Positions 6,414 through 58,638 of a DNA stretch of 64,000 nucleotides are shown piece by piece (within the stretch, counting starts at the first letter, position 1; the number at the start of each line of letters is the position of its first letter). A model generated the notes under the pieces. It made no database searches, was not told where the DNA came from, and saw nothing but the letters and a program-made list of their open reading frames with translations. Both the position numbers and the translations under genes were made by a program. This DNA is from Steroidobacteraceae bacterium (GTDB lineage Bacteria; Pseudomonadota; Gammaproteobacteria; Steroidobacterales; Steroidobacteraceae). The stretch is from NCBI GenBank assembly GCA_035632655.1, contig DASQGK010000098.1, forward strand, positions 7,810 to 71,809, in the 5' to 3' direction.

Positions 6414-6570
6414 GGTGGACGCGCAGTATAGGCAGGCGTGGCAGTGGTGATATGCTGCGTTGCAGCAATAGCGCCAGGATCACGATTTGCAACGATGACA
6501 ACCGGGTGTGCGCCTCTATACTCTGCCTCGCCTTGGCGGCCGTGAGGGCAAGCTCGAGCCTGAGTGAGTG

Positions 6571-8385
6571 ATGGAACCTACCGATACTTCCCACCCCGAT
6601 TACTATCATCGAGTTGTGGACTGCCAGTGGGCCTGCCCGGCCCACACCGATGTTCCCGAGTACATCCGCCTGATTGCGCAGGGCCGCTTCACCGACGCCT
6701 ACATGGTGAACCGGCACTCGAACGTCTTCCCGGGCATCCTCGGGCGCGTGTGCGATCGTCCGTGCGAGCCGGCCTGCCGCCGCGGGCGCATCGAGCAGAA
6801 GCCGGTGGCCATCTGCCGCCTGAAGCGCGTCGCCGCCGATCACCGTGACGACATCACCTCCAGGCTCCCCCCGATACCGAAGCTGAAGAACGGCAAGCGC
6901 ATCGCCTGCATCGGTGCCGGCTGCGCTTCCCTCACGGTGGCCAACGATCTGATGCCGCTCGGCTATCAGGTGACGATTTTCGAGCAGTATGGCGAGCCTG
7001 GCGGCCTGATGCGCACCAACATCCCCTCGTTCCGCCTGCCGGCGACGGTATTGAACGAGGAGATCGCGCAGATCACCGGCATGGGCGTCGACCTCAGGCT
7101 CAATACGCCGGTGAAGAGTCTGCGCGAGCTGCTGCGCTCGGGCGGTTTCGATGCGGTGTTCGTCGGCTCCGGCGCACCGAAGGGCAAGGAGCTGACTCTC
7201 CCCGGGCGCGAGGCCGGCGCCGCCAACATTCACATCGGCATCGCCTGGCTCGAGTCGGTGGCCTTCGGTCACATCGACAAGATCGGCAAGCGCGTCCTCA
7301 TCATCGGCGTCGGCAACACGGCGATGGACTGCTGCCGCACCAGCCTTCGCCTCGGCGCCGACAGCGTCAAGGTCATGGCGCGCAAGCCGCGCGGCTTCTT
7401 CAAGGCGTCCGCCTGGGAGCTCGAGGACGCCGAGGAAGAAAGCGTCGAGATCGTGGTCAACCGCGCGCCCAAGGCCTTCTGCTTGGAGGGCGGCCGGCTC
7501 ACCGGCATGCTGTTCGAGAAGATGGAGTACGACCTCGATGCACAGGGCCGCATCGTGCGCGAGCGCAGCACCGGCGAGGAATTTCTGCCGGCGGACGACG
7601 TGATCCTCGCCATCGGCCAGGAGAACGCTTTCCCCTGGATCGAACGCGACCTCGGCATCGAGTTCGACAAGTGGGACGTGCCGGTCATCGACAAGACGAC
7701 CTTCCAGTCGAGTCTGCCGCAGGTGTTCTTCGGCGGCGATGCGGCCTTCGGGCCGAAGAACATCATCTGGGCGGTCGAGCACGGGCATCAGGCTGCCATC
7801 TCCATCCACCGGCATTGCCAGGGTGAGGCGGTGGCCGAGCGCTTGCCGCCGGGCGTCAATCTGCAGAGCCGCAAGATGGGCATGCACGAGTGGTCGTACT
7901 CGAACGACTACACGCCGGTCGAACGGCGCCTCATGCCGCACGTGTCGATCAAGGAACGCTTCAAGAAACTCAACATCGAAGTCGAGCTCGGCTTCACCGC
8001 CGAGCAGGTCGAGCAGGAGGTGCAGCGCTGCCTCAACTGCGACGTGCAGACGGTGTTCACGGCGAAGCTGTGCATCGAGTGCGACGCCTGCCTCGACATC
8101 TGCCCGGTGGACTGTCTCACCATCACGCACAACGGGGAGGAGGGCGAGCTGCGCACCCGGCTCAAGGCCAAGGCGTTGAACCTGACGCAGCCGCTGTACG
8201 TGTCCGCCGCGCTCCCGCAGACCGGACGTGTCATGGTGAAGGACGAGGACCTGTGTGTGCACTGCGGGCTGTGCGCCGAGCGCTGTCCCACCGCGGCCTG
8301 GGACATGCAGAAGTCCGAGATCCGCTGGCCGCATGCCGCGGATGAGCCCGCGCCGCCGGTGAAGCGCGCCGCCAGGATCGCCTGA
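6571..8385 (+). CDS. GltD-like NAD(P)H-dependent flavoprotein with C-terminal 2x[4Fe-4S] ferredoxin domain (putative third subunit of the 2-oxoacid oxidoreductase)
   Basis: About 604 aa. It has an N-terminal Cys cluster (CQWACP...CDRPCEPAC), the dinucleotide fold IACIGAGCASLTVANDL and a second VLIIGVGNTAMD, and C-terminal CIECDACLDICP and CVHCGLCAERCP. ATG at 6571 (GTG at 6568 also possible). Confidence 0.8.
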   Translation: MEPTDTSHPDYYHRVVDCQWACPAHTDVPEYIRLIAQGRFTDAYMVNRHSNVFPGILGRVCDRPCEPACRRGRIEQKPVAICRLKRVAADHRDDITSRLPPIPKLKNGKRIACIGAGCASLTVANDLMPLGYQVTIFEQYGEPGGLMRTNIPSFRLPATVLNEEIAQITGMGVDLRLNTPVKSLRELLRSGGFDAVFVGSGAPKGKELTLPGREAGAANIHIGIAWLESVAFGHIDKIGKRVLIIGVGNTAMDCCRTSLRLGADSVKVMARKPRGFFKASAWELEDAEEESVEIVVNRAPKAFCLEGGRLTGMLFEKMEYDLDAQGRIVRERSTGEEFLPADDVILAIGQENAFPWIERDLGIEFDKWDVPVIDKTTFQSSLPQVFFGGDAAFGPKNIIWAVEHGHQAAISIHRHCQGEAVAERLPPGVNLQSRKMGMHEWSYSNDYTPVERRLMPHVSIKERFKKLNIEVELGFTAEQVEQEVQRCLNCDVQTVFTAKLCIECDACLDICPVDCLTITHNGEEGELRTRLKAKALNLTQPLYVSAALPQTGRVMVKDEDLCVHCGLCAERCPTAAWDMQKSEIRWPHAADEPAPPVKRAARIA

Positions 8386-8386
8386 C

Positions 8387-10240
8387 ATGTCTCCGACCGC
8401 CACACGCGTCAACGACTTCACCATCAAGATCGCCACGGTGAACGGCACCGGCTCGGCCAGCGCCAACACCCTGCTCATGAAGTCGATCTTCAGGAGCGGC
8501 ATCCCGGTGATGGGCAAGAATTACTTTCCCTCGAATATCCAGGGGCTGCCCACCTGGTACGAGATCCGCGTGACCCGCGAAGGCTACGTGGCCCGTTCCG
8601 GACAGGTCGACCTGATGGTGGCGATGAATGCGGAGACCTACGCGCGCGATGTGCGCGAGGTCGCCGCCGGCGGCTACCTGGTGTACGACTCCACCTGGCC
8701 GCGGCCCGCGCTGCTGAAGCGCGACGACATCACGGTGCTGGGCGTGCCGCTGGCGAAACTCTGCAACGAGAATTTCAACGGGGTGCGCACCCGCATCCTG
8801 ATGAAGAACATCTGCTACGCGGGGGTCCTGGCGGCGCTGCTCGACCTCGACCTGGCGCGCATCCGCGAGCTCCTCGCCGAGACCTACGCGAAGAAGCCGC
8901 AGCTGGTCGACAGCAACATGAAGGCGATCCAGCTCGGCTACGACTACGCGCGCGAGCACTTCACCTGTCCGCTGCCGCTGCGCGTCGAGCAGATGGACCG
9001 CACGGCCGGCCACATCATGATCGACGGCAACACCGCCGCGGCTTTGGGGTGCGTGTTCGCCGGCGCGACGGTGGCGGCGTGGTATCCGATCACCCCGTCC
9101 ACCTCGCTCATGGACGCATTCAAGATGTTCGCCGATCGCAGCCGCGTCGATAAGGAGAGCGGCGCGAGGAACTTCGCTTTCATCCAGGCCGAGGACGAGC
9201 TCGCTGCGGTCGGCATGGTGATCGGCGCCATGTGGAACGGTGCGCGCGCCTTCACCGCCACCTCCGGCCCCGGCATCTCGCTCATGAACGAGTTTCTCGG
9301 GCTCGCGTATTACGCCGAAGTGCCGGCGGTAATTTTCGACATCCAGCGCGTCGGCCCCTCGACCGGCATGCCGACCCGCACCCAGCAGGGCGACCTCATG
9401 CTGGCCGCCTACGCCTCGCACGGCGACACCCGTCATGTGTGCCTCTATCCGGCCAACCCCGAGGAGTGCTTCTACATGGCGGCGCAGGCCTTCGATCTCG
9501 CCGAGCGACTACAGACCCCGGTGCTGGTGCTGTCGGATCTCGACATCGGCATGAACGACTGGATGTGCCGGGATTTGAAGTGGGACGACACCTACCGGCC
9601 CGATCGCGGCAAGGTGCTCGGCAAGGAAGAGGTCCAGAAGCTCAAGAAGTTCTACCGCTTCCTCGACGTGGACGACGACGGCATCGCCTACCGCACGCTG
9701 CCGGGGGTCGACCCCAAGGCCGCCTACTTCGCCCGCGGCTCGGGCCACAACCAGTACGGCGTCTACACCGAGGACTCGGCCGAGTACCAGGTCGTCCTCG
9801 ACCGGCTGATGCGCAAGTGGGCGACCGCGAAGCGGCTGGTGCCGCGCGCGGTGATCGATGCCACCACGGACTCGAAGATCGGCATCGTTTCTCTCGGCAG
9901 CTGCGATGGCGCGATCCGCGAGGCACGCGACGTACTCGGCCGCCGCGGCATCGCGGTGGACTATATGCGCGTGCGCTCCTTCCCCTTCAGCGAGGACGTC
10001 GAGAAGTTCCTGGCGGCACATGAGCTGCTGTTCATCGTCGAGCAGAACCGCGACGCGCAGCTGCGCTCGCTCCTGACGCTGGAGACGCCGGTCGATAAGT
10101 CGAAGCTCCGCTCGCTGCTGCATTACTCGGGGCTGCCGATCTCCTCGGCCTTCATCGTCGACGGAGTGCTCGGCGAGCTGCAGCACGAGCGCGCGGCCGG
10201 ACCGGTCAGGGAGCGCACCGCGCAGGGGGCTTCGTCATGA
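8387..10240 (+). CDS. korA: 2-oxoacid:acceptor oxidoreductase subunit alpha (KorA-like)
   Basis: 617 aa. N-terminus FTIKIATVNGTGSASANTLLMKSIFRSGIPV is typical of the fused gamma/alpha KorA. It starts 1 nt after the upstream stop. Confidence 0.9.
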   Translation: MSPTATRVNDFTIKIATVNGTGSASANTLLMKSIFRSGIPVMGKNYFPSNIQGLPTWYEIRVTREGYVARSGQVDLMVAMNAETYARDVREVAAGGYLVYDSTWPRPALLKRDDITVLGVPLAKLCNENFNGVRTRILMKNICYAGVLAALLDLDLARIRELLAETYAKKPQLVDSNMKAIQLGYDYAREHFTCPLPLRVEQMDRTAGHIMIDGNTAAALGCVFAGATVAAWYPITPSTSLMDAFKMFADRSRVDKESGARNFAFIQAEDELAAVGMVIGAMWNGARAFTATSGPGISLMNEFLGLAYYAEVPAVIFDIQRVGPSTGMPTRTQQGDLMLAAYASHGDTRHVCLYPANPEECFYMAAQAFDLAERLQTPVLVLSDLDIGMNDWMCRDLKWDDTYRPDRGKVLGKEEVQKLKKFYRFLDVDDDGIAYRTLPGVDPKAAYFARGSGHNQYGVYTEDSAEYQVVLDRLMRKWATAKRLVPRAVIDATTDSKIGIVSLGSCDGAIREARDVLGRRGIAVDYMRVRSFPFSEDVEKFLAAHELLFIVEQNRDAQLRSLLTLETPVDKSKLRSLLHYSGLPISSAFIVDGVLGELQHERAAGPVRERTAQGASS

Positions 10241-11295
10241 CTTTCATCGCCAAGCCGAAGGTCGCCCACCCCTCGCTCCCCCGCAACACGCTCGGGCTGA
10301 CGCGCCGCGACTACGAGGGAGCGCTCTCGACGCTGTGCGCCGGCTGCGGCCACGACTCGATCACCGCGGCGATCGTCGAGGCGAGCTGGGGACTGTCGCT
10401 CCAGCCGCAGAACGTCGTGAAGCTGTCGGGGATCGGTTGCTCTTCCAAGACCACCGCCTATTTCGTCTCCGGCGGTCACGGCTTCAACTCCGTGCACGGC
10501 CGCATGCCCTCGATCGCCATGGGGGCGAATGCCGCCAACCGCAACCTCACCTACATCGGTGTCTCGGGCGACGGTGACACCCTGTCGATCGGCCTGGGGC
10601 AGTTCTGCCACGCCATCCGCCGCAACCTCGACATGCTCTACATCATCGAGAACAACGGCGTTTACGGGCTCACCAAGGGACAGTTCTCCGCCTCCGCCGA
10701 CATCGGCACCCGCGCGAAGAAGGGCGAGACCAACGTGCAGCCGCCGATCGACCCCGTGCTGCTCGCGATGACCCTCGGGGCATCGTTCGTGGCGCGCAGC
10801 TTCTCCGGCGACAAGGAGCAGCTGGTGCCGCTGATCCAGGCGGGCCTCAAGCACCGCGGCTTCGCGCTGATCGACGTGCTCTCGCCCTGTGTCACCTTCA
10901 ACGACCACGAGGGCTCGACCAAGAGCTACGCCTACACCCGCGAGCACTACGAGCCCGCGGTGCACACCGACTTCATCCCGCTCGAGCGGGAGATTACCGC
11001 CGCTTACCGGCAAGGCGAGGCGCTGCCGGTGGTGATGCACGACGGCAGCCGCATCGTGCTGCGCAAGCTCGACTCGGGCTACGACCCGACGAATCGCACC
11101 CTGGCCGCCGCGCAGATTCAGGAGCGCATGAAGGCGGGCGAGTACCTGACGGGACTGCTGTTCCTCGATGAGGGGGCGCAGCATGAATTTCACCAGGTGA
11201 ACTCGACCCCCGCGGCGCCGCTCAACAGCATTCCCTACGAGCAACTGTCACCCGGGTCGAAGGGCCTGGAGAAAATTCTCGCCCGTTATCGCTAG
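10237..11295 (+). CDS. korB: 2-oxoacid:ferredoxin oxidoreductase subunit beta (KorB-like, TPP-binding)
   Basis: 352 aa. ATGA overlap with korA. Motifs: CAGCGHDSI and the TPP motif GVSGDGDTLSIG...NNGVYGLTKGQ. Confidence 0.9.
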   Translation: MTFIAKPKVAHPSLPRNTLGLTRRDYEGALSTLCAGCGHDSITAAIVEASWGLSLQPQNVVKLSGIGCSSKTTAYFVSGGHGFNSVHGRMPSIAMGANAANRNLTYIGVSGDGDTLSIGLGQFCHAIRRNLDMLYIIENNGVYGLTKGQFSASADIGTRAKKGETNVQPPIDPVLLAMTLGASFVARSFSGDKEQLVPLIQAGLKHRGFALIDVLSPCVTFNDHEGSTKSYAYTREHYEPAVHTDFIPLEREITAAYRQGEALPVVMHDGSRIVLRKLDSGYDPTNRTLAAAQIQERMKAGEYLTGLLFLDEGAQHEFHQVNSTPAAPLNSIPYEQLSPGSKGLEKILARYR

Positions 11296-27951: not shown

Positions 27952-27967
27952 ACCCGCACCTCGCATG

Positions 27968-28002
27968 AAGCGCCCGGCCTCTCCGGCCGGGCGCTTTTTT
28001 TT
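27968..28002 (+). terminator. rho-independent terminator of the TonB-dependent receptor gene
   Basis: AAGCGCCCGGCC-TCTCC-GGCCGGGCGCTT followed by T8, read directly. Confidence 0.8.
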
Positions 28003-28012
28003 CGTATCCACT

Positions 28013-29755
28013 ATGCTCTGCCCACTTTTGGGCCGGGAGCTCCCCGTGTTGCGAACAGTAACCCTGCGGCTTGCGATCGCGCTGCTGGCGCTCACTCCGG
28101 CACTCCTGCCCGCGGCGCAGGCGGCCGCCACGCCAGCCGGCATGGACCGCGACCTCCTCGAGGTCACCATCCCGCAGCTGCACCGCTACTACGAGCAGCG
28201 CCGCTACACCGTGTCACAGGTGGTCGACTGGTATCTCGCGCGCATCGCGCGTTACAACGGCACTTACAAGCCGCTCGAGCAGGTGTTCGAGGCGGAGGCG
28301 CGCGCGCTCGCCGCGCGCGCAGACGCCGAGCCGGCCGCCGCGCGCGGCCCGCTGTGGGGCGTGCCGATCGTCATCAAGGCCAACACCAGCATCGCGGGCG
28401 AGGTGACGACCAACGGCTGGGAAGGCTTCGTCGTGCCCGGCCACGAGCTCATCGCACCGCGCGACGCCACGATCGTCGCCAGGCTGCGCGCCGCGGGTGC
28501 GATCATCCTCGGGCACAGCAATATGCCGGATTTTGCCAACTCCGATACCACGCGCAGCAGCTCCTTCGGCCGCACCGGCAATGCCTACGACATTCGCTTC
28601 TCGCCCGGCGGGTCCTCCGGAGGGACCGTGACCGCGGTGACGGGCAACATGGCCGTGTTCGGCAGCGGTACGGATACCGGCAATTCCATCCGCATGCCGT
28701 CGGGGACCAGCGCGCTGATCGGCGTATTCCCGACCCGTGGCCTGGTGAGCATCGCCGGCATCGCCCCGCTCGACTGGCTGCTCGACAACACCGGGCCCAT
28801 CGCCCGCAATGTCACCGACGCGGCGATCGCGCTCGATGTGATGGCCGGAGAGGACCCGCTCGATCCGGTGACCCAGGGCTCGGCCGCGAAGGCGCAGCAC
28901 GGACCGTACACGCAATACCTGAAGAGCGACGCGCTCAGGGGCCGCCGCTTCGGCGTGCCCGCCTTCATCCTCGCAGGCATCGGCATTCCGTTCCGCGGCA
29001 CGCCGGCCGTGGTGCCGGACATGGCGGCGGAGAAGCATGCGGACGAGGAGGCCTGGGCGCTCGATCCGCGCACGCGTGCCGCTTTCATGAAAGCGCTCGC
29101 CGAGCTGCGCGCGCTCGGCGCCACGGTCGTCATGGACGACTCGGTGCTGCCGGAGAGCTTCGCGCGGGCGGCGGGCCGCATCGCCACCTACCCGTACGGA
29201 CGCGAGGGCACGGACCTGTTTCTCAGGAATTTCGGGCCGGCGGAGTACCACTCGAGCGCCGATTACGAGCGCGTGATGGGCGCTCCGCTCGGGGCGCCCA
29301 TGATCGGCACCGAGCCCCTGAAGTCGCAGTTCGAGTACGGCGATATCAGGATCAATCAGCGTACGCTCGAGACGGACCCGGACGCGGAGCGCAACTTCTT
29401 CGGTCCGCGCCGCCGCGTGCTCAAGGATTACCTCGACACCATGGACCGTCTGCACCTCGACGGCTATATCTACCCCTCGAGCCAGATGCCGCCGGTCGAC
29501 GAGACCATGCCGCAGGACGGCCAGGTGACCGACGGCCCGCATTCCGCGACCAGCTGGGTCAACATGCTGGGCGTTCCCGCGGTCGTCGTGGTCGGAGGCT
29601 TCTACGACAGCGGCCTGCCCTTCGGCATGGAGCTCTCGGGTCGCCCCTTCCGGGACGGCGACCTGCTCGGCTTCGCCTATGCCTGGGAGCAGGGGACGCA
29701 CCACCGGCATCCGCCCGTGCTCGCGGACCAGGGGCTGCTGCCAGGGGCGCGCTGA
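28013..29755 (+). CDS. secreted amidase (amidase-signature family)
   Basis: About 580 aa from the first ATG after the terminator. Signal peptide ...ALLPAAQAAA, then PLWGVPIVIKAN and GGSSGGTVTAV (AS signature). Confidence 0.88.
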   Translation: MLCPLLGRELPVLRTVTLRLAIALLALTPALLPAAQAAATPAGMDRDLLEVTIPQLHRYYEQRRYTVSQVVDWYLARIARYNGTYKPLEQVFEAEARALAARADAEPAAARGPLWGVPIVIKANTSIAGEVTTNGWEGFVVPGHELIAPRDATIVARLRAAGAIILGHSNMPDFANSDTTRSSSFGRTGNAYDIRFSPGGSSGGTVTAVTGNMAVFGSGTDTGNSIRMPSGTSALIGVFPTRGLVSIAGIAPLDWLLDNTGPIARNVTDAAIALDVMAGEDPLDPVTQGSAAKAQHGPYTQYLKSDALRGRRFGVPAFILAGIGIPFRGTPAVVPDMAAEKHADEEAWALDPRTRAAFMKALAELRALGATVVMDDSVLPESFARAAGRIATYPYGREGTDLFLRNFGPAEYHSSADYERVMGAPLGAPMIGTEPLKSQFEYGDIRINQRTLETDPDAERNFFGPRRRVLKDYLDTMDRLHLDGYIYPSSQMPPVDETMPQDGQVTDGPHSATSWVNMLGVPAVVVVGGFYDSGLPFGMELSGRPFRDGDLLGFAYAWEQGTHHRHPPVLADQGLLPGAR

Positions 29756-37298: not shown

Positions 37299-37375
37299 GC
37301 GCCCGTAGCTCAGTTGGATAGAGTGGCAGCCTCCGAAGCTGCAGGTCGCTGGTTCGAATCCAGTCGGGCGCGCCA
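37299..37375 (+). tRNA. tRNA-Arg (anticodon CCG)
   Basis: Acceptor stem GCGCCCG/CGGGCGC. D-arm TAGCTCAGTTGGATAGAGT. Anticodon stem GCAGC/GCTGC with loop CTCCGAA. T-arm GGTTCGAATCC. Encoded CCA end. Confidence 0.93.
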
Positions 37376-39008: not shown

Positions 39009-39587
39009 ATGAGCCGCTTTCAGCAGGTGCACTTTCTCCTGAGCGCCGCACAACCCGCGCAATTCCCCGCGGATACGGGCGCCGAAGTCGCCTTTGCCGG
39101 GCGCTCGAACGCGGGCAAGTCGAGCGCCATCAACGCCATCGTCCAGCGCCACGGTCTCGCCCGCACCAGCAAGACCCCGGGACGCACCCGCCTGCTCAAT
39201 TTCTTCGAGCTGGCCCCGTCGAAGCGCCTGGTGGACCTTCCGGGCTATGGCTACGCGGGGGGACCCGAGGCCGACCGCCGCACCTGGCACGCGCTCATCG
39301 AAGCGCTCGGTGAGCGCGCCTCGTTGAAGGCCCTGTTCCTGATCGTCGATGCCCGCCGCGGTCTCACGGACGGCGATGAGGGGCTCCTCGAGTGGGTTTC
39401 GCCGGCGCAGCGCGTGCACGTGCTGCTCGCCAAGGCTGACAAACTGTCCCGGGGGGAGGCCCAGAGCGCCCTGCGTACGGCCGGCGGACAGCTCGCCGGC
39501 CGGGCGACGGTGCAGCTCTTCTCGGCATTCGACGGGACCGGCCTCAAGCAGGCTCAGGACACGCTCGAGAATTGCCTCGCACAATAA
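39009..39587 (+). CDS. engB: ribosome biogenesis GTPase YihA/EngB
   Basis: 192 aa from ATG 39009. Motifs: G1 GRSNAGKSSAIN, DLPGYGY, LAKADK. The upstream 325 codons of the ORF are antisense junk. Confidence 0.93.
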   Translation: MSRFQQVHFLLSAAQPAQFPADTGAEVAFAGRSNAGKSSAINAIVQRHGLARTSKTPGRTRLLNFFELAPSKRLVDLPGYGYAGGPEADRRTWHALIEALGERASLKALFLIVDARRGLTDGDEGLLEWVSPAQRVHVLLAKADKLSRGEAQSALRTAGGQLAGRATVQLFSAFDGTGLKQAQDTLENCLAQ

Positions 39588-39619
39588 AAAGCCCCGGCGA
39601 CTTTGAGGGCCGCCGGGGC
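39586..39619 (-). terminator. rho-independent terminator oriented for the - strand
   Basis: On the - strand: GCCCCGGCG-N11-CGCCGGGGC followed by TTTTTATTG. No T tract on the + strand. Confidence 0.7.
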
Positions 39620-39742
39620 AGACCAACCCGGCACAGGTCTCGTTGAACCGGGTCATGTACCCGCTCAGGGAGGGAAGCGGGGAGTGCTAAGCACTCGCTG
39701 GATGAGACAAAGCACGTGCGCCCGGAGTTCCGGTCCGGCCCA
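39586..39742 (-). ncRNA. candidate sRNA of about 150 nt (positional analogue of Spot 42/ErsA)
   Basis: On the - strand: TTGACC (39778-39773), N18, GATTAT (39754-39749) in an AT-rich patch. Internal hairpins follow (CCGGACCGGAACTCCGG, GAGTGCTTAGCACTC), ending in the intrinsic terminator above. No ORF with an RBS. Confidence 0.35.
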
Positions 39743-50463: not shown

Positions 50464-51648
50464 TCATTCCCTGAGGCCGGCTGCCACGCGCCGATAGGCC
50501 TCGCGGAACGGAATGCCCTCGCGCACCGCGAGCCGGTTGGCTTCCTCGGCCGCGTGGATCGCCGGATCCAGTTTGATCGCTTCGCGGTTGAATTGCATCG
50601 CCGCGATCGCCGGCGGCAGGATCGCCAGCGTAGCGAGCGCCAGGTCGACGGCACGGAACAGCGGCGCCTTGATGAGCTGCAGGTCGCGGTTGTAACCGGA
50701 GGGGAGCTTGGCGCACACGGCGAGCGCCTCCGTCAGGCAGCCGAGCGCGCTCCCCGAGCGGCCGCGGATCAGCTCGAACACGTCCGGGTTGCGCTTCTGC
50801 GGCATGATCGAGGAGCCGGTGGTGAAGGCTTGCGGCAGCCGCACGAAGCCGAATTCCCGCGTGGTGAACAGCAGCACGTCGGAGGCGAAGCGCGCGAGGT
50901 CCTGCATGAGCAGCGCGATCTCGAAGAGCAGCTGCGCTTCGGCTTTGCCGCGCGACAGCTGCACGGCCGTGACCGGCTCGTGTACCGAGGCGAAGCCGAG
51001 CGCCGCGCGCGTCGCATCGCGATCGATGGGCAGTCCCGGTGTGCCGTAGCCGGCCGCGGAACCCAGCGGGCTGCGCGCCAGACGGCGCCCCACCTCGCCA
51101 AGGCCCTGGGCGTCATCGCGCAGCTCCGCGGCGAAGCCGCCGGCCCACAGCGGCACCGAGCTCGGCATCGCCTGCTGCATGTGCGTGTAGCCGGGCAGCG
51201 CCGTGCCGCCCTCGCGTACCGCAAGCTCATCGAGCGCGTCCGCCACCTGCAGCGCGCCGCTGCTCAGGTCCTCGATGGCCTCCCGCAGGCACAGGCGGAT
51301 TGCGGTGAGCACCTGGTCGTTGCGCGAGCGCCCGAGATGAATGCGCTGCCCGGCGATGCCGATGCGCTCGGTGAGGCGCCGCTCGAGCGCGGTCTGCCCG
51401 TCCTCATCCTCAAGCTCGACGCGCCATGCGCCGCGCTCGTGCTCGGCGGCAAGCGCGGTCAGGCCGTCGCGGATGGCATCGAGATCGGCGAGCGACAGCA
51501 GCCCCTGCGCGTTGAGCATCTCGGCATGGGCGATCGAGGCACGCACGTCGTAGCGCACCAGCCGATCGTCGATCGCGTAGTCGTCCCCCGCCGTGTAGCG
51601 CAGCACGCGCTCATCGAGCGGCGCGCCCTTGTCCCACAGGCGCGTCAT
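50464..51648 (-). CDS. argH: argininosuccinate lyase (short form, LWDKG-type N-terminus)
   Basis: 394 aa from ATG 51648 (ATGA overlap with the argB stop). Motifs: HLGRSRNDQV, PGYTHMQQAMP, and the signature GSSIMPQKRNPD. Confidence 0.92.
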   Translation of the reverse strand: MTRLWDKGAPLDERVLRYTAGDDYAIDDRLVRYDVRASIAHAEMLNAQGLLSLADLDAIRDGLTALAAEHERGAWRVELEDEDGQTALERRLTERIGIAGQRIHLGRSRNDQVLTAIRLCLREAIEDLSSGALQVADALDELAVREGGTALPGYTHMQQAMPSSVPLWAGGFAAELRDDAQGLGEVGRRLARSPLGSAAGYGTPGLPIDRDATRAALGFASVHEPVTAVQLSRGKAEAQLLFEIALLMQDLARFASDVLLFTTREFGFVRLPQAFTTGSSIMPQKRNPDVFELIRGRSGSALGCLTEALAVCAKLPSGYNRDLQLIKAPLFRAVDLALATLAILPPAIAAMQFNREAIKLDPAIHAAEEANRLAVREGIPFREAYRRVAAGLRE

Positions 51649-52580
51649 GGCGTCGCCTGCTGCTCGGCCGGGCTGAGCGCGTTGACGTCGGCCACGATCA
51701 GGGTGCCGGTGCCCTCGTTGGTGAATACCTCGCCGAGAATCCCCTCGGGCGAGCGATACGAGACCACGTGCACCCGTCGTACGCCGCCGCGGATCGCGTC
51801 CTCGATCGCCTTGGCTTTGGGCAGCATGCCGTCGGCGATCTGGCCCGATTCGCGCAGGCGCTTCAGTCCCGCCAGGTCCGTATAGGAGATGAGCGAGCCC
51901 GGATCGGAGACCTGACCCAGGATCCCCGGCGTGCCGGTGCACAGGATCAGCTTCTCCGCCCCGAGCGCCGCGCCGAGGGCCGCCGCGACGGTGTCGGCGT
52001 TGATGTTGAGCAGCGTCCCGGTCGCGTCCGCCGACAGCGGGCTCACCACGGGCATCAGGGCGTTGTCGAGGAGCTTCTTCAGCACCGTGGTGTCGACCGC
52101 ATCGATGTCTCCCACGAAGCCGAAGTCGACCGGCTCGCCGCCCTCGCTCACGCGCACCGGCGGGCGTTTGTGCGCACGCACCAGTCCGGCGTCCACGCCG
52201 CTGATGCCGACCGCGTCCACGTTGAGATCGCGGCACATCGCCAGCAGGCGCGTGTTGATGAGCCCGTTGAGCACCATCGCCGTGACATCGATCGAGCGCG
52301 CGTCCGTCACCCGGCGGCCCTCGATCATCTGCGTGGGCACGCCGAGGGCGGTCGAGAGCTCGGTGAGCTGCGGGCCCCCGCCGTGCACCAGCACTACCCG
52401 CACTCCGAAGTAATGCAGGATGCCGATCTGCTCGACCAGCGCGCGGGTCAGCTCGGGCTCGGCGAACACTCCGCCGCCGGCCTTCACCACGAAGGTCTTG
52501 CCCTTGTACATGCGGATGTAGGGTGCGGCGCTCTTCAGGGCGCGGATCGCCAGGGCCTGGTCGCTGCGATGCATGATCAT
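51645..52580 (-). CDS. argB: acetylglutamate kinase (no fused acetyltransferase domain)
   Basis: 311 aa. Motifs: KTFVVKAGGG, VLVHGGGPQ, LNINADTVAAALG. Confidence 0.93.
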   Translation of the reverse strand: MIMHRSDQALAIRALKSAAPYIRMYKGKTFVVKAGGGVFAEPELTRALVEQIGILHYFGVRVVLVHGGGPQLTELSTALGVPTQMIEGRRVTDARSIDVTAMVLNGLINTRLLAMCRDLNVDAVGISGVDAGLVRAHKRPPVRVSEGGEPVDFGFVGDIDAVDTTVLKKLLDNALMPVVSPLSADATGTLLNINADTVAAALGAALGAEKLILCTGTPGILGQVSDPGSLISYTDLAGLKRLRESGQIADGMLPKAKAIEDAIRGGVRRVHVVSYRSPEGILGEVFTNEGTGTLIVADVNALSPAEQQATP

Positions 52581-52601: not shown

Positions 52602-53600
52602 TCAGGACTTGAGCAGTGAGTGGAGCACGGCCATCTGCACGGTGAGACGGTTGGCGGCCTCGCGCTGCACGGCGCTGCGCGGGCCGTCGAGCACTTCGTC
52701 GGCGATGGCGGTGTTGCGCCGCACCGGCAGGCAGTGCATGACGCGGCATTCGGGCGCGGCGCGCGCCAGCCAGTCGTTGCGCACGCACCAGTCCTTGAGG
52801 GCGCTGCGCAGTCGGGCATCGCCGGCCGCATCGCCGTAGCTCGCCGTAGCGCCCCACTCCTTCACGTAGACGACGTCCGCCCCCTCGAGGGCTTCCGCGC
52901 GCTCCGCGGTTTCGCGCAGCGACCCGCCGGCGGCGGCGGCCGCGCGCCGCGCCCGTTCCATGACGGCAGGCGGGAGGGCGAACCCTTCCGGGCGCAGCAC
53001 GGTGACTTGCATGCCGCGCAGTGCCGCCATGTGCAGCGCCGCGGCCGGCACCGCCAGCGGCAGCGCGCGCGGATGCCAGGCCCAGGAGAGCACGAAGCGC
53101 CCCCCGCGCGGCACCCCGAGATCGTCCAGCGTCTTCCAGTCGGCGAGCGCCTGGCAGGGGTGATCGAGCGCGGACTCGAGATTGATGAGCGGCTTGTCGG
53201 CGAGCTCCGCCATCGGGCCGAAGCTGCTCTCGGCGAGATCGCTGTCGAGACTCCTGCCTTCCGCGAATACGCGGATGCCGAGCGCATCGCAGTAGGAGCA
53301 CAGGACCGGGATCGCCTCACGCACGTGCTCGGCGGCCGCACCGTCCATCACCGCCCCCGGGCGAGTCTCGAGCTGCCAGCTGCCGTGCCCCGGGTGGATC
53401 ACGAAGGAGCTGCCGCCGAGGCGCGCCATCGCCGCCTGGAACGAGGCGAGCGTGCGCAGCGAGGGGTTGAACATCAGCAGCCCGAGGATCTTGCCGGCGA
53501 GCGCGCGCGGCTCGCCGGTCCGCTCCAGTCGGCGCGCCAGCTCGAGGAGCGACAGCACCTCCTCGCGCCCGAGCTCGCTTAAGGATACGAAGCGCTTCAC
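52602..53600 (-). CDS. argF': N-acetylornithine (or N-succinylornithine) carbamoyltransferase, ArgF' type
   Basis: 332 aa from GTG 53600 (GTGA overlap). FNPSLRT (instead of the STRTR motif of ornithine transcarbamylase), HPCQALAD, W.WHP and HCLPVRRN match my recollection of the Xanthomonas/Bacteroides acyl-ornithine transcarbamylases. Confidence 0.85.
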   Translation of the reverse strand: MKRFVSLSELGREEVLSLLELARRLERTGEPRALAGKILGLLMFNPSLRTLASFQAAMARLGGSSFVIHPGHGSWQLETRPGAVMDGAAAEHVREAIPVLCSYCDALGIRVFAEGRSLDSDLAESSFGPMAELADKPLINLESALDHPCQALADWKTLDDLGVPRGGRFVLSWAWHPRALPLAVPAAALHMAALRGMQVTVLRPEGFALPPAVMERARRAAAAAGGSLRETAERAEALEGADVVYVKEWGATASYGDAAGDARLRSALKDWCVRNDWLARAAPECRVMHCLPVRRNTAIADEVLDGPRSAVQREAANRLTVQMAVLHSLLKS

Positions 53601-54787
53601 GGATCGAGATCCTTGAGCGCATCGCGCAGCGCATCGACGTGCTGCTCCTCGAGGATGTAGGGCGGGAGCAGGCGCAGCACGTGGCTGTCGGCGGAGGTGC
53701 CGGCGAGGATGCCGCACTCGATGAGCTCGGCGTGGATCTCCTTCGCCGGCCTGCGGGTGCGCAGTCCCACCAGCAGTCCCGTGCCCTGCATGCCGGTAAC
53801 CGGCCCCACCAGGCAGGTGCGGCGGATGTAGCTGCCCAGGCGCCGCACCCGCTCGAGAAGCTTCTCCTCGCGCAAGGCGGCGAGCACCGCGTTGATGGCG
53901 GCGCACGCCATCGGGCCGCCGCCGAAGGTGGTACCGAGTGACTCCACTTTGAGCGAGGCGGCGACCAGCGGCGACAGCATCAGCGCCGCCACCGGGAAGC
54001 CGTTGCCGAGCGCCTTGGCCGTGGTGAGCATGTCGGGCCGCACGCCGTAGAGGTTGGCGGCGAAGGGCTCACCCAGGCGCCCCATCCCGCACTGCACCTC
54101 GTCGAATATCAGCAGCGCTCCGACCTCATCGCAGCGTGCACGCAGCGCTGCGAGAAAGGGCTTGCCGAGCACTACCGCGCCCGCGAGCCCCTGCACCGGC
54201 TCGACGATCACCGCCGCGGTGTCGCGGGTCACCTGCGCGCCGATCGCCGCGGTGTCGCCGCGCGGAATGAAGCTCACGTCGAAGGGCGTGCGCGGATAGC
54301 CGTACCACTTCGCCTGCGCACCCCAGGTGACGGCGCCGGCGGCCGCGGTGCGCCCGTGGAAGGCGCCCTCGATGGCGGCGACGTGCGCGCGGCCGGTCAT
54401 GCGCAGCGCCACCTTGAGCGCATTCTCGTTCGCCTCGGCGCCGCTGTTGACGAAGAAGACGCTGCCGAAGGGCAGCTTGGAGAAGCGCACCAGCCGGCGC
54501 GCCGCCTTGGCGCGCACCTGCATGGCCACCGCGTTGCTCTGGAACTGACACTGCGCGGCCTGGGCCGCGAGGGCCGCGGTCCACCCGGGATGTGCGTAGC
54601 CGAGCGCCACGACCGCGTGTCCGCCGTAGAGATCGAGCAGCCGCTCGCCGCGGCTGTTGGTGAGCCAGACGCCCTCTGCGGCGGCAATCTCGAGCGGGTA
54701 TTGTGCGAACACCTGCGCCTGGAAATCCCGCTGCGGCGCTTTCATCGTGGTGCGCGCGGCGGTCGCGGTCGGCGATCTCTTGGCCAT
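53597..54787 (-). CDS. argD: acetylornithine (class III) aminotransferase
   Basis: 396 aa. Motifs: VFFVNSGAEANENALK, IFDEVQCGMGR, and the PLP lysine in TTAKALGNGFP. AAGAGG RBS. Confidence 0.88.
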   Translation of the reverse strand: MAKRSPTATAARTTMKAPQRDFQAQVFAQYPLEIAAAEGVWLTNSRGERLLDLYGGHAVVALGYAHPGWTAALAAQAAQCQFQSNAVAMQVRAKAARRLVRFSKLPFGSVFFVNSGAEANENALKVALRMTGRAHVAAIEGAFHGRTAAAGAVTWGAQAKWYGYPRTPFDVSFIPRGDTAAIGAQVTRDTAAVIVEPVQGLAGAVVLGKPFLAALRARCDEVGALLIFDEVQCGMGRLGEPFAANLYGVRPDMLTTAKALGNGFPVAALMLSPLVAASLKVESLGTTFGGGPMACAAINAVLAALREEKLLERVRRLGSYIRRTCLVGPVTGMQGTGLLVGLRTRRPAKEIHAELIECGILAGTSADSHVLRLLPPYILEEQHVDALRDALKDLDP

Positions 54788-54799
54788 CGGTGCGCCTCT

Positions 54800-55885
54800 T
54801 CAGGTCCAGCCGGGCGCGGGCTGGGTGAGACCGGCGGTCTCACTGAAGCCCAGCATGCGGTTCATCCACTGCACGGCGCCGCCGGCGGCGCCCTTCACCA
54901 GGTTGTCGATCGCGCACATGACGGCGATGGTGCGGCCGTCGGCTGCCGCGGCGAGGTGGGCGTAGTTGCTCGCCACCACTTCCTTGAGATGCGGAGAGCG
55001 CTCGGCCACGCGCACGAAAGGCGCGCGCGCGTAGTACTCGCGCAGCGCGCCGCAGGCCGCGGCGCCGTCGAGCGGCCGGGTGAGCCGCGCCTGCACCGTG
55101 ACATGGATGCCGCGGGCGAAGGGGCCCGAGTGCGGCACGAAGGCGAGCTGCGCCTCGACGCCGGTCGCCGCCCGCGCACAGGCGATGATCTCCGGCGCAT
55201 GGCGGTGCCTGAGCACGTTGTAGCCGTAGAGATCTGCGTGACGCAGCGGATGGTGCGTGCCCTCGACGGGCTTGCGGCCCGAGCCGGTGCTGCCGGTGAC
55301 GCCGCTCACGAACAGCAGCGGCTCGCTGAGGCCGAGCGCGAGCAGCGGCACCGCGGCGAGCAGCACCGCGGTGGCAAAGCACCCGGGATGCCCGACGTGC
55401 GGCGTCGTCAGCGTCTCGAGATGCTCGGGCAGGGCGCAGCTGAACTCCTCGAGCCGCGCCGCGGCCCCATGCGCGTGTCCGTAGACTGCGGCGTATTCCT
55501 CGCCCGAGGCGTAGCGGAAATCGGCGGAGATATCCACCACCCGCGCGTTGCTTCCGGCGCGCGCCGCGGCGGCGAGCACCGTGTCGATCAGGCCGGCCGA
55601 GACGCCGTGGGGCGCGGCCGAGAACACGGCCAGGGTCGGCGCCCCGGCGAGCTGGCGCGTCACCTCCGCGAGGGTGCCGAAGCGCGTCTCGGGGTACGCG
55701 GAGACCAGGTGCGGAAAGGCGCTGGCCAGCGTTTCCCCCGGCGAGCTCTCCGACATCACGCCGGCCAGGCTCAGCTGCGGATGGCCGGCAATCAGCCGCA
55801 GCAGTTCGCCGGCGACGTAGCCGGTTCCGCCGAGAACCACCGCGGGGAGGCGCCCGCCCGCGCCGTTGGCTGCGCGCGCGCTCAT
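54800..55885 (-). CDS. argC: N-acetyl-gamma-glutamyl-phosphate reductase
   Basis: 361 aa from ATG 55885 (ATGA overlap with gene X). Motifs: VLGGTGYVAGELLRL, catalytic Cys in GHPGCFATA, DNLVKGAAG. Confidence 0.93.
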   Translation of the reverse strand: MSARAANGAGGRLPAVVLGGTGYVAGELLRLIAGHPQLSLAGVMSESSPGETLASAFPHLVSAYPETRFGTLAEVTRQLAGAPTLAVFSAAPHGVSAGLIDTVLAAAARAGSNARVVDISADFRYASGEEYAAVYGHAHGAAARLEEFSCALPEHLETLTTPHVGHPGCFATAVLLAAVPLLALGLSEPLLFVSGVTGSTGSGRKPVEGTHHPLRHADLYGYNVLRHRHAPEIIACARAATGVEAQLAFVPHSGPFARGIHVTVQARLTRPLDGAAACGALREYYARAPFVRVAERSPHLKEVVASNYAHLAAAADGRTIAVMCAIDNLVKGAAGGAVQWMNRMLGFSETAGLTQPAPGWT

Positions 55886-56955
55886 GCGGCGGCGGCTGCG
55901 GCGAGCCCCAGCGCCTCGATCACCCGGTCGCCGAGGGCTGCCGCGTTGCTGATGGCGTTGAAGGCCGGCACGTTGAGCTGCGTCGTGATGATCTCGACGC
56001 CGACCTGGTTGTCGGTGCACGGGCCGGTGACGGCGCACGGCTCGATGCGGAAGCGATCGCGCAGCAGCTTGACGCCGCCCCAGGCGGCCACCGGGTCGTT
56101 GGCCGACAGGACCACGCCGGTGAGTGCGCTGCGAATGTCGGCACACTCGAGGATGGCGTCCACCCCGTAGTTGCCGAGAATGCCGTCGCCGAGCTCGAAC
56201 ACGACGACGTCGGGCTTGGCTGCAGCGAGCTCGGTCAACATGGTGCGCGTCAGCGCCGGACCGTTGGCGCGTGTGGTGGTGACGATGCCGAGGTCGGTGA
56301 AAATCGCGCAGCGGCGCGCGCCCGCGTCCTCCATCGCGAGAATATCGCGGCGCAGCGACACGCCGGTCGCCTTGAATGCATCGACGGTGAGCCCCCGATG
56401 ACGCATGCGCGACACGATGGCGCAGGCGGCGGCGGTCTTGCCGGCCTCCATGCAGGTGCCGGCGAGCGCCACCACCGGCACACCGCGCGTGTCGAGCGCG
56501 GCATTCGCATCGAGCCGCTTGTGCCCGGCGCGCGCCGGCACGCCGATGCGCTCGCCGAGGTAGGGAAAGTTGAGCGCCACGCCGAGCACACGGCAGTCGA
56601 AGGGCTTGCCCTTCTCCGGGTTGATCGAGTCGCACACCCCCAGCACACCGCCGATGTTGAGCATCTGCAGCACGTCGCCGGGCTGCACCGCGGCCGGCAC
56701 GTGCCCGGAATAGCCGAACAGCGCCTGCCGGTGGCCGAGCGCGCCGGCGACGATATCGCCCTTGCCGACCTTGGCCATGCGGCCGCTCACCAGCTCGAGG
56801 GTGTTGTAGGTCGATTTGTTGTTGAGCACCTCGACCACGATCACTACGCCTTCTTCCGCCGGAATGTCGGTGGCGATGCGCACCTCGTGGGACAGGCCGC
56901 AGGCCTGCGTGACCGAGGCGAGCTTGTCGACCAGGACGCTGCGCATGCCGACCAT
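55882..56955 (-). CDS. uncharacterised protein: N-terminal domain of about 165 aa plus a BioD/CobQ/DUF1611-class (SIMIBI) P-loop domain
   Basis: 357 aa from ATG 56955, 2 nt after the argG stop. P-loop GTCMEAGKT (residues 166-174, nt 56434-56460) and FELGDG (residues 253-258). No motif of any canonical arg enzyme. Confidence 0.75.
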   Translation of the reverse strand: MVGMRSVLVDKLASVTQACGLSHEVRIATDIPAEEGVVIVVEVLNNKSTYNTLELVSGRMAKVGKGDIVAGALGHRQALFGYSGHVPAAVQPGDVLQMLNIGGVLGVCDSINPEKGKPFDCRVLGVALNFPYLGERIGVPARAGHKRLDANAALDTRGVPVVALAGTCMEAGKTAAACAIVSRMRHRGLTVDAFKATGVSLRRDILAMEDAGARRCAIFTDLGIVTTTRANGPALTRTMLTELAAAKPDVVVFELGDGILGNYGVDAILECADIRSALTGVVLSANDPVAAWGGVKLLRDRFRIEPCAVTGPCTDNQVGVEIITTQLNVPAFNAISNAAALGDRVIEALGLAAAAAA

Positions 56956-56956
56956 G

Positions 56957-58180
56957 TCAGCCCTCCCGTGCCGCACGCGCGGCGCGCTCGCCGGCTCGTG
57001 TATAGAAGACGCCCGGGAGCGCGGCGATGCGCGAGAAGCCGAGCGCATCCGTGGGCGACCACTCGCCCGCCGCCTCCCCATAGACACCGCGCGAGGCGGC
57101 CATGAGCGAGTAGGGCGACTCCACGCCCTCGACGAACAGCCCGCCGGTCTGGAGCTGCAACAGCACCTCGCCGGTGACGCGCTGCTGGGACGACAGCAGC
57201 AGCGCTTCGATGTCGCGGCACACCGGATCGAGCAGCTGGCCTTCGTGCACCAGGTCGCCATAGGGCTGTGCCAGCTGCTCCTTGATGCGCTGCTGCCGTG
57301 CGGTGAGGGTGAGCTTCTCGAGCTCGCGGTGCGCGGTCAGCAGGACCTCCGCGGCCGGCGCCTCGAAGGCGACGCGCCCCTTGGTGCCGATGATGGTGTC
57401 GCCCAGGTGGATGCCGCGTCCGATGCCGAAAGGAGCGGCGAGCGCCTCGAGCTGCTCGATGATCTCGACCGGAGAGCTCGCGCGGCCGTCGAGCGCGGCC
57501 GGCAGCCCCTGCCGGAACGAGAGCACGTGGCGCTGCGCCGCGCGCGGCCGGGTGAAGGCCTCGCGCGTGAGCAGCCAGGCCTCCTCCGGGATACTGCCGC
57601 TGGAGGTGAGGGTCTCCTTGCCGCCGATGGTGACGCCCCACAGACCCCGGTTCACCGAGTACGCCGCTCCCGTCGGCGGGACCGGCAGGCCGCGGGAGGT
57701 GAGGTACTCGAGCTCCTCCTGACGCTTGAACGCCCGGTCGCGTACCGGCGCGAGCACGGTCAGGTCCGGCGCCAGTGTGCGCAGCGCCACTTCGAAGCGC
57801 ACCTGATCGTTGCCGGCGGCGGTGCAGCCGTGCGCCACGGTGTCGGACGCAAGCTCGCGCGCCATGCGCGCGACGGTCTGCGCCTGCATGACGCGCTCGG
57901 CGCCGACGCACAGCGGGTAGAGCGCTCCGCGGCGCACGTTCCCCATGATGAGAAAACGCAGTACCTGCTCGAAATAGGCGGCGCGCGCATCCACCTGGTG
58001 GTGCGCGACGGCGCCGAGCGAGCGCGAGCGCTCGGCGAGGGTGCGCGCGGCCGCGGCATCGATACCGCCGGTGTCGACCGTCACGGTGATGACCGGACGG
58101 CGGTGGGTTTCGGCGATCCACGGCACCAGGAACGAGGTGTCGAGTCCGCCCGAGTAGGCGAGGACGATCGGAGTAGGCAT
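56957..58180 (-). CDS. argG: argininosuccinate synthase
   Basis: 407 aa from ATG 58180. Motifs: VLAYSGGLDTS, AHGCTAAGNDQVRFE. Confidence 0.95.
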   Translation of the reverse strand: MPTPIVLAYSGGLDTSFLVPWIAETHRRPVITVTVDTGGIDAAAARTLAERSRSLGAVAHHQVDARAAYFEQVLRFLIMGNVRRGALYPLCVGAERVMQAQTVARMARELASDTVAHGCTAAGNDQVRFEVALRTLAPDLTVLAPVRDRAFKRQEELEYLTSRGLPVPPTGAAYSVNRGLWGVTIGGKETLTSSGSIPEEAWLLTREAFTRPRAAQRHVLSFRQGLPAALDGRASSPVEIIEQLEALAAPFGIGRGIHLGDTIIGTKGRVAFEAPAAEVLLTAHRELEKLTLTARQQRIKEQLAQPYGDLVHEGQLLDPVCRDIEALLLSSQQRVTGEVLLQLQTGGLFVEGVESPYSLMAASRGVYGEAAGEWSPTDALGFSRIAALPGVFYTRAGERAARAAREG

Positions 58181-58185
58181 GGCTT

Positions 58186-58638
58186 TCAGATTCCGAAGAG
58201 GCTGCGCAGGCGGGACACGAGCTCCTCCTGCGCGCGGGCGCTGGCGGTGGCGATGAAGATGGTGTCGTCGCCGGAGATCGTGCCGGCGACCTCGGGCCAT
58301 GCGGCCTTGTCGATGGCGACGGCGACCGACTGCGCCGCGCCGATGGTGGTGCGCAGCACCGTGATCGAAGGCCCGGCGCGGCGCAGCTCGCGTACGAACT
58401 GCGCCAGCGACTCGAAGTCGCCGTTGGCCCGAGTCACCTCGTCGGGCGGCAGCACATAGCGGCCGCTGGCTTTCAGCACGCCGAGGTCGCGCAGGTCGCG
58501 GCTGATCGAGGACTGGGTGGCGTCGTGTCCCGCTTTCTTCAGCAGGCGCACCAGCTCCTGCTGCCGGCGCACGGCACCGGTGCGCAGCAGGCGCATGATG
58601 GCGCCGCGCCGCTGCAGCTGCTGCGCTTCGCTCACCAC
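58186..58638 (-). CDS. argR: arginine repressor ArgR
   Basis: 150 aa from GTG 58638 (AAGGA upstream). Motifs: QQELVRLLKKAGHDATQSSISRDLRDLG, C-terminal GTISGDDTIFIA. Upstream in-frame starts (58689, 58722) would run through the operator. Confidence 0.85.
   Translation of the reverse strand: MVSEAQQLQRRGAIMRLLRTGAVRRQQELVRLLKKAGHDATQSSISRDLRDLGVLKASGRYVLPPDEVTRANGDFESLAQFVRELRRAGPSITVLRTTIGAAQSVAVAIDKAAWPEVAGTISGDDTIFIATASARAQEELVSRLRSLFGI

Follow-up and report, generated by a model that had tools for sequence, protein, structure and literature searches.

Which protein performs the first step of arginine synthesis in a bacterium whose arginine operon carries none of the classical enzymes for it? 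The question is raised by a 64,000-nucleotide stretch of DNA from a Steroidobacteraceae bacterium (contig DASQGK010000098.1; this whole stretch is called the window below). Its arginine operon runs in the order argR-argG-X-argC-argD-argF'-argB-argH, the neighbours of X being assigned by NCBIfam models, and X is an open reading frame (ORF) of 357 codons plus stop on the minus strand (56955..55882). An earlier note on this DNA had described the operon as devoid of any argA-, argJ- or argE-type gene and its ArgB (311 aa) as lacking a fused GNAT domain, and had proposed X as the missing N-acylglutamate synthase of an acetylated pathway. Both observations stand, since no GNAT, ArgJ or M20/ArgE-like gene was detected in the operon or in 28 flanking ORFs (10+10+8), a scan which covered all but a few stretches of the window, and a tblastn search with an M20 protein probe gave no match in the window. 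The proposed synthase role is supported by the linkage of X to arg genes, by a gene fusion and by a prediction made in a preprint, while the acetyl part of the proposal is not. We conclude that X probably takes the role of ArgA in one or the other of two mechanistic forms, and consider the chances about even that it is an ArgA analogue making N-succinyl-L-glutamate with succinyl-CoA as donor.

X is a real, conserved gene of no assigned family, and its gene structure and translational coupling were directly observed in this analysis. The ATG of X (56955-56953) follows the argG stop TGA (56959-56957) with 1 nt in between (TGAcATG); the spacing of 2 nt given in the earlier note holds when the count runs up to the first base of the start codon. 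This start is preceded, at a distance of 5 nt, by the Shine-Dalgarno-like sequence GGGAGGG, and the X stop TGA (55884-55882) shares an ATGA with the argC ATG (55885-55883). Such a 4-nt overlap between X and the downstream gene (ATGA or GTGA) was found at 85 of 100 homologous loci. The ORF, its junctions and the motifs GTCMEAGKT (residues 166-174) and FELGDG (residues 253-258) are otherwise as first described.

The family is large. X is matched by more than 6426 clusters formed at 90% identity, the closest being 97% identical proteins from Steroidobacteraceae metagenome-assembled genomes (MAGs), and clustering at 50% gave 1469 representatives, 203 of them with E < 1e-30. All homologues that carry a source name are annotated as hypothetical; the named relatives come from Myxococcota, Acidobacteriota (Blastocatellia, Pyrinomonadaceae, Thermoanaerobaculia), Planctomycetota, Woeseia and others. 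Gene order was surveyed at 87 loci, mostly of Steroidobacteraceae. The full eight-gene order of the window was present at 55 of them, and most of the rest showed it truncated where the contig stops, with a minority of rearranged orders or fusion loci.

Linkage to arg genes in more distant genomes, on which the earlier proposal was made to depend, was found in all eight informative contexts sampled for homologues at 32-50% identity (those in Table 1, and L087). The arg-cluster context of X is conserved across phyla. A gene with Arg_repressor Pfam domains is present in the L092, L094 and L095 clusters, and an M20 protein, of the ArgE/DapE type in L089, lies in the same cluster as X in L089 and L094. 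Since this deacylase coexists with X at both loci, X is not itself the deacylase; a role of X as ArgE was ruled out on this ground and by its P-loop fold.

X also occurs fused in frame to an amino-acid-kinase domain (called protein of 626 aa; L084 7899-9881, also L085 and L086), which is similar both to ArgB and to the kinase-like portion of classical ArgA. The called start of the fusion gene is too far downstream, and a full X N-terminus is present in frame upstream of it. This arrangement mirrors the kinase-plus-acyltransferase layout of ArgA and of Xanthomonas NAGS/K, with the domain order reversed and X N-terminal. The fusion gene stands alone, divergent from an adjacent arginase gene, and was found in four contigs; the three that were retrieved, from three metagenomes, are 99.9% identical in DNA and represent a lineage of 69% GC. 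A widespread X-ArgB fusion was not found among the homologues. An apparent X-ArgC fusion (P0178, L087 8309-15676) was discarded: the same contig also fuses ArgR-ArgG and ornithine carbamoyltransferase (OTC)-ArgB ORFs, and because several arg genes are joined there the X-ArgC junction is likely a frameshift or indel artefact.

The role proposed here for X is a rediscovery. According to the GapMind 2026 preprint (bioRxiv 10.1101/2024.10.14.618325), ACG33_RS14135, a hypothetical protein in the arg cluster of Steroidobacter denitrificans DSM 18526, and its homologues are predicted to be the missing ArgA, acting as N-succinylglutamate synthase. The preprint reports that this strain grows on minimal medium without ArgA and ArgE, that homologues of ACG33_RS14135 lie virtually always in arg operons and never alongside classical ArgA, that the predicted structure weakly resembles that of DgcN (7XRJ; E 1.4e-7 and a 5.6 Å root mean square deviation) and that position 92 is A/P/S/V in 90% of the ArgF' proteins encoded nearby (bioRxiv 10.1101/2024.10.14.618325). 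The X of the window fits this family in taxon, in cluster layout and in the non-Glu residue at position 92 of its ArgF'. Both proteins belong to Steroidobacteraceae, each being the one hypothetical protein of an argR/G/C/D/F'/B/H cluster with a succinyl-type ArgF' neighbour and a remote P-loop likeness. The prediction for the X family is already contained in the preprint and in GapMind; beyond the text cited here come the fusion to an ArgB-like domain, the invariant residues of BioD type, the N-terminal fold without a match and the paralogues outside arginine clusters described below.

The nature of the acyl group was approached through the substrate specificity of ArgF'. Glu92, Asn185 and Lys302 mark the acetylornithine transcarbamylases (AOTCases), whereas the succinyl enzymes carry A/S/P/V/Q, P and V/I/E at positions 92, 185 and 302, respectively (PMC4581275). 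In a residue-by-residue alignment with PDB chains, A90, P181 and A298 of the window ArgF' fell at E92, N185 and K302 of the Xanthomonas campestris AOTCase. Among 79 X-linked ArgF' loci, position 92 was A, S, V or I and never Glu, position 185 was Pro in 78 of the 78 readable loci and position 302 was Lys once. The distant X-linked clusters showed A/S/V/I, P and V/I/E, which is the succinyl signature. Because the specificity residues of ArgF' read as the succinyl type, the pathway would be N-succinylated, and the acyl group is, judged from these residues, most likely succinyl rather than acetyl.

The earlier note had read this ArgF' as an acetyl enzyme, which is probably wrong given A/P/A in place of E92/N185/K302, and had accordingly assumed an N-acetylglutamate synthase. 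We consider that version of X very improbable: the fact that DgcN is an acetyltransferase, as stated in the preprint, and the NCBIfam name of ArgF' would speak for it, but the residues in the window, the succinyl signature in distant X-linked clusters and the best-scoring PDB chain for the window ArgF', which by a narrow lead is the AOTCase mutant E92A, all speak for the other acyl group. The name in question comes from NF003384, 'N-acetylornithine carbamoyltransferase', for which the window protein scores above the cutoff; going by the same residues, automated annotation of this ArgF' clade is likely wrong on the substrate. Bacteroides is said to use a GNAT-type enzyme for its first step, where a P-loop protein is proposed here. 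Succinyl-type ArgF' residues, with N-succinylated intermediates expected, are shared with the N-succinyl pathway of Bacteroides fragilis (SOTCase; PMC4581275).

To which family does X belong, then? No Pfam or NCBIfam model matched X above threshold, nor did any when 47 diverse homologues were scanned. The earlier note had pointed to DUF1611, whose members carry a GTxxxxGK[T] P-loop and an ExG Walker B. The best Pfam match of X is indeed DUF1611_C (PF07755), scoring 17.5 bits where 25 is required, over residues 158-198 only, that is, the P-loop. PF07755 was matched at E < 0.01 by 11 of the 47 family members, in all of them at the P-loop only, and the highest score of any individually scanned homologue was 24.6 bits. 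The DUF1611 N-terminal domain, PF17396, had no match in X or in the 47 members. We therefore dropped the DUF1611 assignment, PF07755 being below threshold, PF17396 unmatched and DUF1611/DgcN chains missing from the PDB sequence matches and from the Foldseek top 50. The MobB, CbiA, CobB and CobQ models gave X scores similar to that of DUF1611_C, also below threshold; the BioD/CobB/CobQ models TIGR00347, PF13500 and PF01656 gave only weak sub-threshold P-loop matches to X, and some family members had weak matches to CobB, CobQ and bioD models. No GNAT (Acetyltransf) or ArgJ domain was matched by Pfam or NCBIfam models in X or in the 47 homologues, and X lacks any canonical arg-enzyme fold; that it matches no such enzyme had been noted from its sequence.

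The alignment-based AlphaFold model of X has two domains (mean pLDDT 96.2, pTM 0.92). The N-terminal domain of about 157 aa, which the earlier note could not place, was not placed here either: modelled alone it is all-beta (pLDDT 94.4), it has no Pfam match, and a Foldseek search against PDB gave no significant match (best E = 1.0, TM score < 0.25). The top Foldseek matches of the whole protein were Ffh/FtsY, BioD, HypB and UreG (E 2.5e-6 to 2e-4, TM score < 0.4 on the full query). In a PDB profile search the best match was Mycobacterium tuberculosis BioD (E 2.8e-4); matches to GroEL at E of about 0.08 were dismissed as chance. Otherwise, what sequence and profile searches of the PDB recovered was confined to the P-loop level. 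An hhalign comparison with Escherichia coli BioD (probability 58%, E 1e-4) paired K173/T174, K195, D204 and E254 of X with K15/T16, K37, D54 and E115 of BioD, which we take to be phosphate-, carbamate- and Mg2+-binding residues. According to these comparisons and the model, the C-terminal domain of X is a BioD-like P-loop fold of the SIMIBI class, in which the counterparts of the BioD P-loop, K37, D54 and E115 are all invariant. X differs from BioD, CobB and CobQ by its extra 157-aa beta domain and its pathway.

Invariant positions in 47 full-length members, in an alignment which spans 28-87% identity, are G36, R76, P87, G103, G172-K173-T174, K195, G198, D204, G212, G223, E254, G256, D287 and G311. 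S14, G36, R76, G84, P87, G103, G106 and G125 of the N-terminal domain are invariant in both alignments made. The catalytic-type residues R76, K173, T174, K195, D204 and E254 persist in the plasmid paralogues, which have 23-28% identity to X (see below). The guanine-specificity motif [NT]KxD and a DxxG Walker B were not found in X, which has A285-x-D287 and E254-x-G-x-G instead. The likeness to the SRP-type/G3E GTPases FtsY, Ffh, HypB and UreG is at the fold level only.

These features bear on whether X could be an accessory NTPase that assists the arginine enzymes without catalysis, for instance as assembly factor, metallochaperone or regulator, in the manner of HypB, UreG or MobB. The likeness of X to HypB, UreG, MobB and the SRP GTPases, in fold and in profile comparisons, is as strong as that to BioD. 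Nevertheless, the NKxD motif is absent and an A-x-D is conserved at its place, no Cys/His metal motif is found among the invariant columns of the 47 members, and the acidic Walker B position holds Glu ahead of G-x-G, like E115 of BioD, in place of the Asp found in GTPases. CobQ shares the Glu-type Walker B, while GTPases use DxxG. X further carries a large, conserved extra domain of substrate-binding type with an invariant Arg, and we know of no chaperone need among the arginine enzymes. Together with the anticorrelation with ArgA reported in the preprint, this makes an accessory role quite improbable.

Not all members of the wider family belong to arginine clusters. Plasmids searched by tblastn yielded five full-length paralogues with 23-28% identity to X, all of which keep R76, K173, T174, K195, D204, D221 and E254. 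Two of them, on Priestia megaterium and Bacillus paranthracis plasmids (L097 and L100), lie in phosphonate-type clusters with a phosphoenolpyruvate-mutase family protein, a split thiamine pyrophosphate (TPP)-dependent decarboxylase, ATP-grasp ligases and an OTC-like or aspartate carbamoyltransferase (ATC)-like carbamoyltransferase. In L100 the carbamoyltransferase gene is the immediate upstream neighbour of the paralogue; in L097 it lies three genes upstream. A DoeB2-like M20 N-acyl-amino-acid deacylase is encoded in the Priestia cluster as well, which is consistent with an 'acylate, modify, deacylate' logic and offers a parallel in favour of the role proposed for X. The three others (L096, L098 and L099) are preceded by an alpha/beta hydrolase gene in L096 and L099 and by a hypothetical protein gene in L098. 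Their annotation is inconsistent, either 'DUF1611 domain-containing protein' or 'dethiobiotin synthase', although none reaches the Pfam cutoff for DUF1611.

The proximity of carbamoyltransferases raises another possibility, namely that X acts at the carbamoyltransferase or citrulline stage. It could recycle succinyl groups in an ArgJ-like manner, from N-succinylcitrulline to glutamate, and so cover the missing ArgA and ArgE together, or it could feed ArgF' by BioD-like carbamate or ureido chemistry; BioD acts on a carbamate. Consistently, no M20 deacylase was found near the cluster in the window and the Steroidobacteraceae loci, X adjoins the carbamoyltransferase gene in L083 and L091, and paralogues lie beside OTC-like or ATC-like carbamoyltransferases in the two phosphonate-type clusters. 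The absence of both ArgA and ArgE from S. denitrificans, as reported in the preprint, points the same way. However, the L094 cluster has X and no carbamoyltransferase, X and M20 occur together in L089 and L094, so that X does not replace ArgE there, and X is fused to the step-2 kinase rather than to ArgF'. The carbamoyltransferases near the paralogues are ordinary OTC and ATC types, not ArgF', and the ArgA gap would stay unfilled. To our knowledge, no P-loop NTPase transfers acyl groups between amides, and we hold a function at this stage to be improbable.

Taken together, these results favour a role of X in the N-acylation of L-glutamate, the first and otherwise missing step of the pathway, by a non-GNAT protein. 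The product would be N-succinyl-L-glutamate, which ArgB, ArgC, ArgD and the succinyl-type ArgF' would then convert to N-succinylcitrulline. The C-terminal BioD-like P-loop domain may bind the acyl donor by its nucleotide or phosphate moiety, and the N-terminal beta domain with R76 may position the dicarboxylate substrate; the reaction, the donor and both domain roles are inferred. By analogy with the P-loop enzyme DgcN, which reportedly uses acetyl-CoA, the donor would be succinyl-CoA. In marine bacteria, DgcN N-acetylates D-glutamate (Yu et al. 2023, cited in bioRxiv 10.1101/2024.10.14.618325); the earlier note had named it a glutamate N-acetyltransferase, without the D configuration of the substrate. 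Both proteins have a P-loop in a BioD-like domain, and DgcN N-acylates glutamate. They differ in that DgcN acts on D-glutamate, in catabolism and with an acetyl group, whereas X is proposed to handle succinyl, and in that the all-beta N-terminal domain of X, which has no PDB match, replaces the DUF1611 N-terminal domain. Compared to ArgA, Xanthomonas NAGS/K, ArgJ and the short GNAT S-NAGS, X would perform the same step without a GNAT or ArgJ fold and, with regard to the classical synthases, probably with succinyl as the acyl group.

The same step could be reached by a different chemistry. X could be an ATP-dependent ligase that phosphorylates succinate, or a different acid, on a carboxylate; the acyl phosphate so formed would be attacked by the alpha-amino group of glutamate, giving N-succinylglutamate, ADP and phosphate in a reaction of the BioD/CobQ type. 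All of the evidence from the arg context applies equally to this form. In addition, the BioD-equivalent residues K173/T174, K195, D204 and E254, with the presumed ligand roles given above, are invariant in the family and in the plasmid paralogues, no PDB sequence matches better than BioD, which also ranks high among the fold matches, and weak matches to CobB, CobQ and bioD models occur in some members. On the other hand, the hhalign probability for BioD is only 58%, and no BioD/CobQ model passes its threshold. All enzymes known to us that form N-succinyl- or N-acetylglutamate in arginine metabolism use acyl-CoA. The one P-loop enzyme with studied biochemistry that N-acylates glutamate, DgcN, is an acetyltransferase according to the preprint. 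We regard the ligase, an ATP-dependent alternative that the earlier note had rightly raised, as the main rival, though an unlikely one. It is likewise doubtful that X founds a group of CoA-independent, ATP-driven N-acylglutamate synthetases in which the novel fold of the beta domain would position glutamate and the paralogues in phosphonate-type and other clusters would protect the amino groups of other amino acids.

Several points weigh against X as the succinyl-CoA-dependent ArgA analogue. The negative result for ArgA, ArgJ and small GNAT genes covers only the scanned ORFs of one 64-kb window, and the orthology of X to ACG33_RS14135 is drawn from taxon (97% identity to proteins of Steroidobacteraceae MAGs) and from layout, by description. 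The link of X to DgcN was no stronger than that to BioD in the tests performed here: DUF1611/DgcN chains were absent from PDB sequence searches with X up to E = 10, and 7XRJ was not in its Foldseek top 50. The invariant set of BioD-equivalent residues, if their ligand roles are as presumed, argues for nucleoside triphosphate chemistry over simple CoA binding. Finally, the X-ArgB-like fusion is confined to one lineage and paralogues of X also occur outside arginine contexts.

If X does act as proposed, the first committed step of arginine synthesis would have a further solution, unrelated in structure to ArgA, ArgJ, the short GNAT enzymes and the LysW-type ligases. Steroidobacteraceae would no longer show an arginine gap, nor would members of Acidobacteriota, Myxococcota, Planctomycetota and further groups frequent in soil metagenomes. 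Automated annotations would be corrected as well, since X proteins now appear as 'hypothetical', 'DUF1611' or 'dethiobiotin synthase' and ArgF' as an 'N-acetylornithine' enzyme.

Table 1. Gene X, its parts and the arginine genes of the window, followed by loci with homologues and paralogues of X (positions are those of the window unless the row names a locus)
Feature	Position	Strand	Basis or context
X	55882..56955	-	ORF and translation; no family above threshold; AlphaFold pLDDT 96.2; arg context of distant homologues
X, N-terminal beta-rich domain, residues 1-157	56485..56955	-	invariant R76 at 56728-56730; no fold match
X, C-terminal BioD-like (SIMIBI) P-loop NTPase domain, residues 158-357	55885..56484	-	Foldseek, PDB profile search, hhalign
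X, Walker A / P-loop GTCMEAGKT, residues 166-174	56434..56460	-	aligns with BioD GTDTEVGKT (K15/T16)
X, KATG motif	56362..56373	-	invariant K195 aligns with BioD K37
X, invariant D204	56344-56346	-	aligns with BioD D54
X, Walker-B-like FELGDG, residues 253-258	56182..56199	-	invariant E254 aligns with BioD E115
argR, arginine repressor, first in cluster	58186..58596	-	TIGR01529 E 1.9e-29, below its cutoff
argG, argininosuccinate synthase, directly upstream of X	56957..58180	-	TIGR00032 275 bits, cutoff 268
argC	54800..55885	-	TIGR01850 276 bits
argD, N-acylornithine aminotransferase	53597..54787	-	NCBIfam
argF', knotted N-acylornithine carbamoyltransferase	52602..53600	-	NF003384 339 bits, cutoff 288
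argB, N-acylglutamate kinase, 311 aa, without acyltransferase domain	51645..52580	-	TIGR00761 208 bits, cutoff 151
argH, short argininosuccinate lyase (394 aa)	50464..51648	-	TIGR00838 positions 12-386 of 455
Homologue locus L081			50% identity to X; argG-X-argC-argD
Homologue locus L092			44% identity; argR-X-argC-argD-OTC-argB
Homologue loci L089/L090			39% identity; argG-X-argC-argF'-argB-M20
Homologue locus L095 (Blastocatellia)			39% identity; argR-argG-X-argC-OTC-argB
Homologue locus L091			37% identity; argG-X-OTC-argH-argS
Homologue locus L094 (6-Mb genome)			36% identity; X-argC-argD-argB-M20-argR-argG-argH; X first gene
Homologue locus L083			32% identity; argG-X-OTC
Paralogue, Priestia megaterium plasmid NZ_CP085446	L097 6899-7960		~23% identity; phosphonate-type cluster
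Paralogue, Bacillus paranthracis plasmid NZ_CP116206	L100 5761-6789		~23% identity; phosphonate-type cluster
Paralogues, Paracoccus/Sulfitobacter plasmids	L096 6902-7954; L098 5914-7011; L099 5893-6945		directly upstream of ABC transporter gene

At the far end of the operon, the window ArgH lacks the C-terminal ~60-70 aa of the 455-position model, and the next gene begins 11 nt downstream. This short form is kept in 58 of 62 related loci; the ArgH of a Blastocatellia cluster has 469 aa.

Elsewhere in the window, a 596-aa amidase-signature protein (27965-29752, plus strand) is encoded directly after a TonB-dependent receptor gene, with no evident link to the arg cluster; it is listed only with the N-succinylcitrulline desuccinylase of this lineage in mind. 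Two Rfam matches, to 'anti-hemB', a small RNA of Burkholderia (39584-39683, minus strand; 51.7 bits, gathering threshold 49.5), and to a tRNA (37299-37372, plus strand), fall where crude ORF calling gave few genes. Three genes at 6568-11295 (plus strand) encode a 2-oxoacid:ferredoxin oxidoreductase-like system, the first with pyridine-nucleotide-disulphide oxidoreductase and 4Fe-4S domains and the other two with POR/POR_N and TPP-binding domains.

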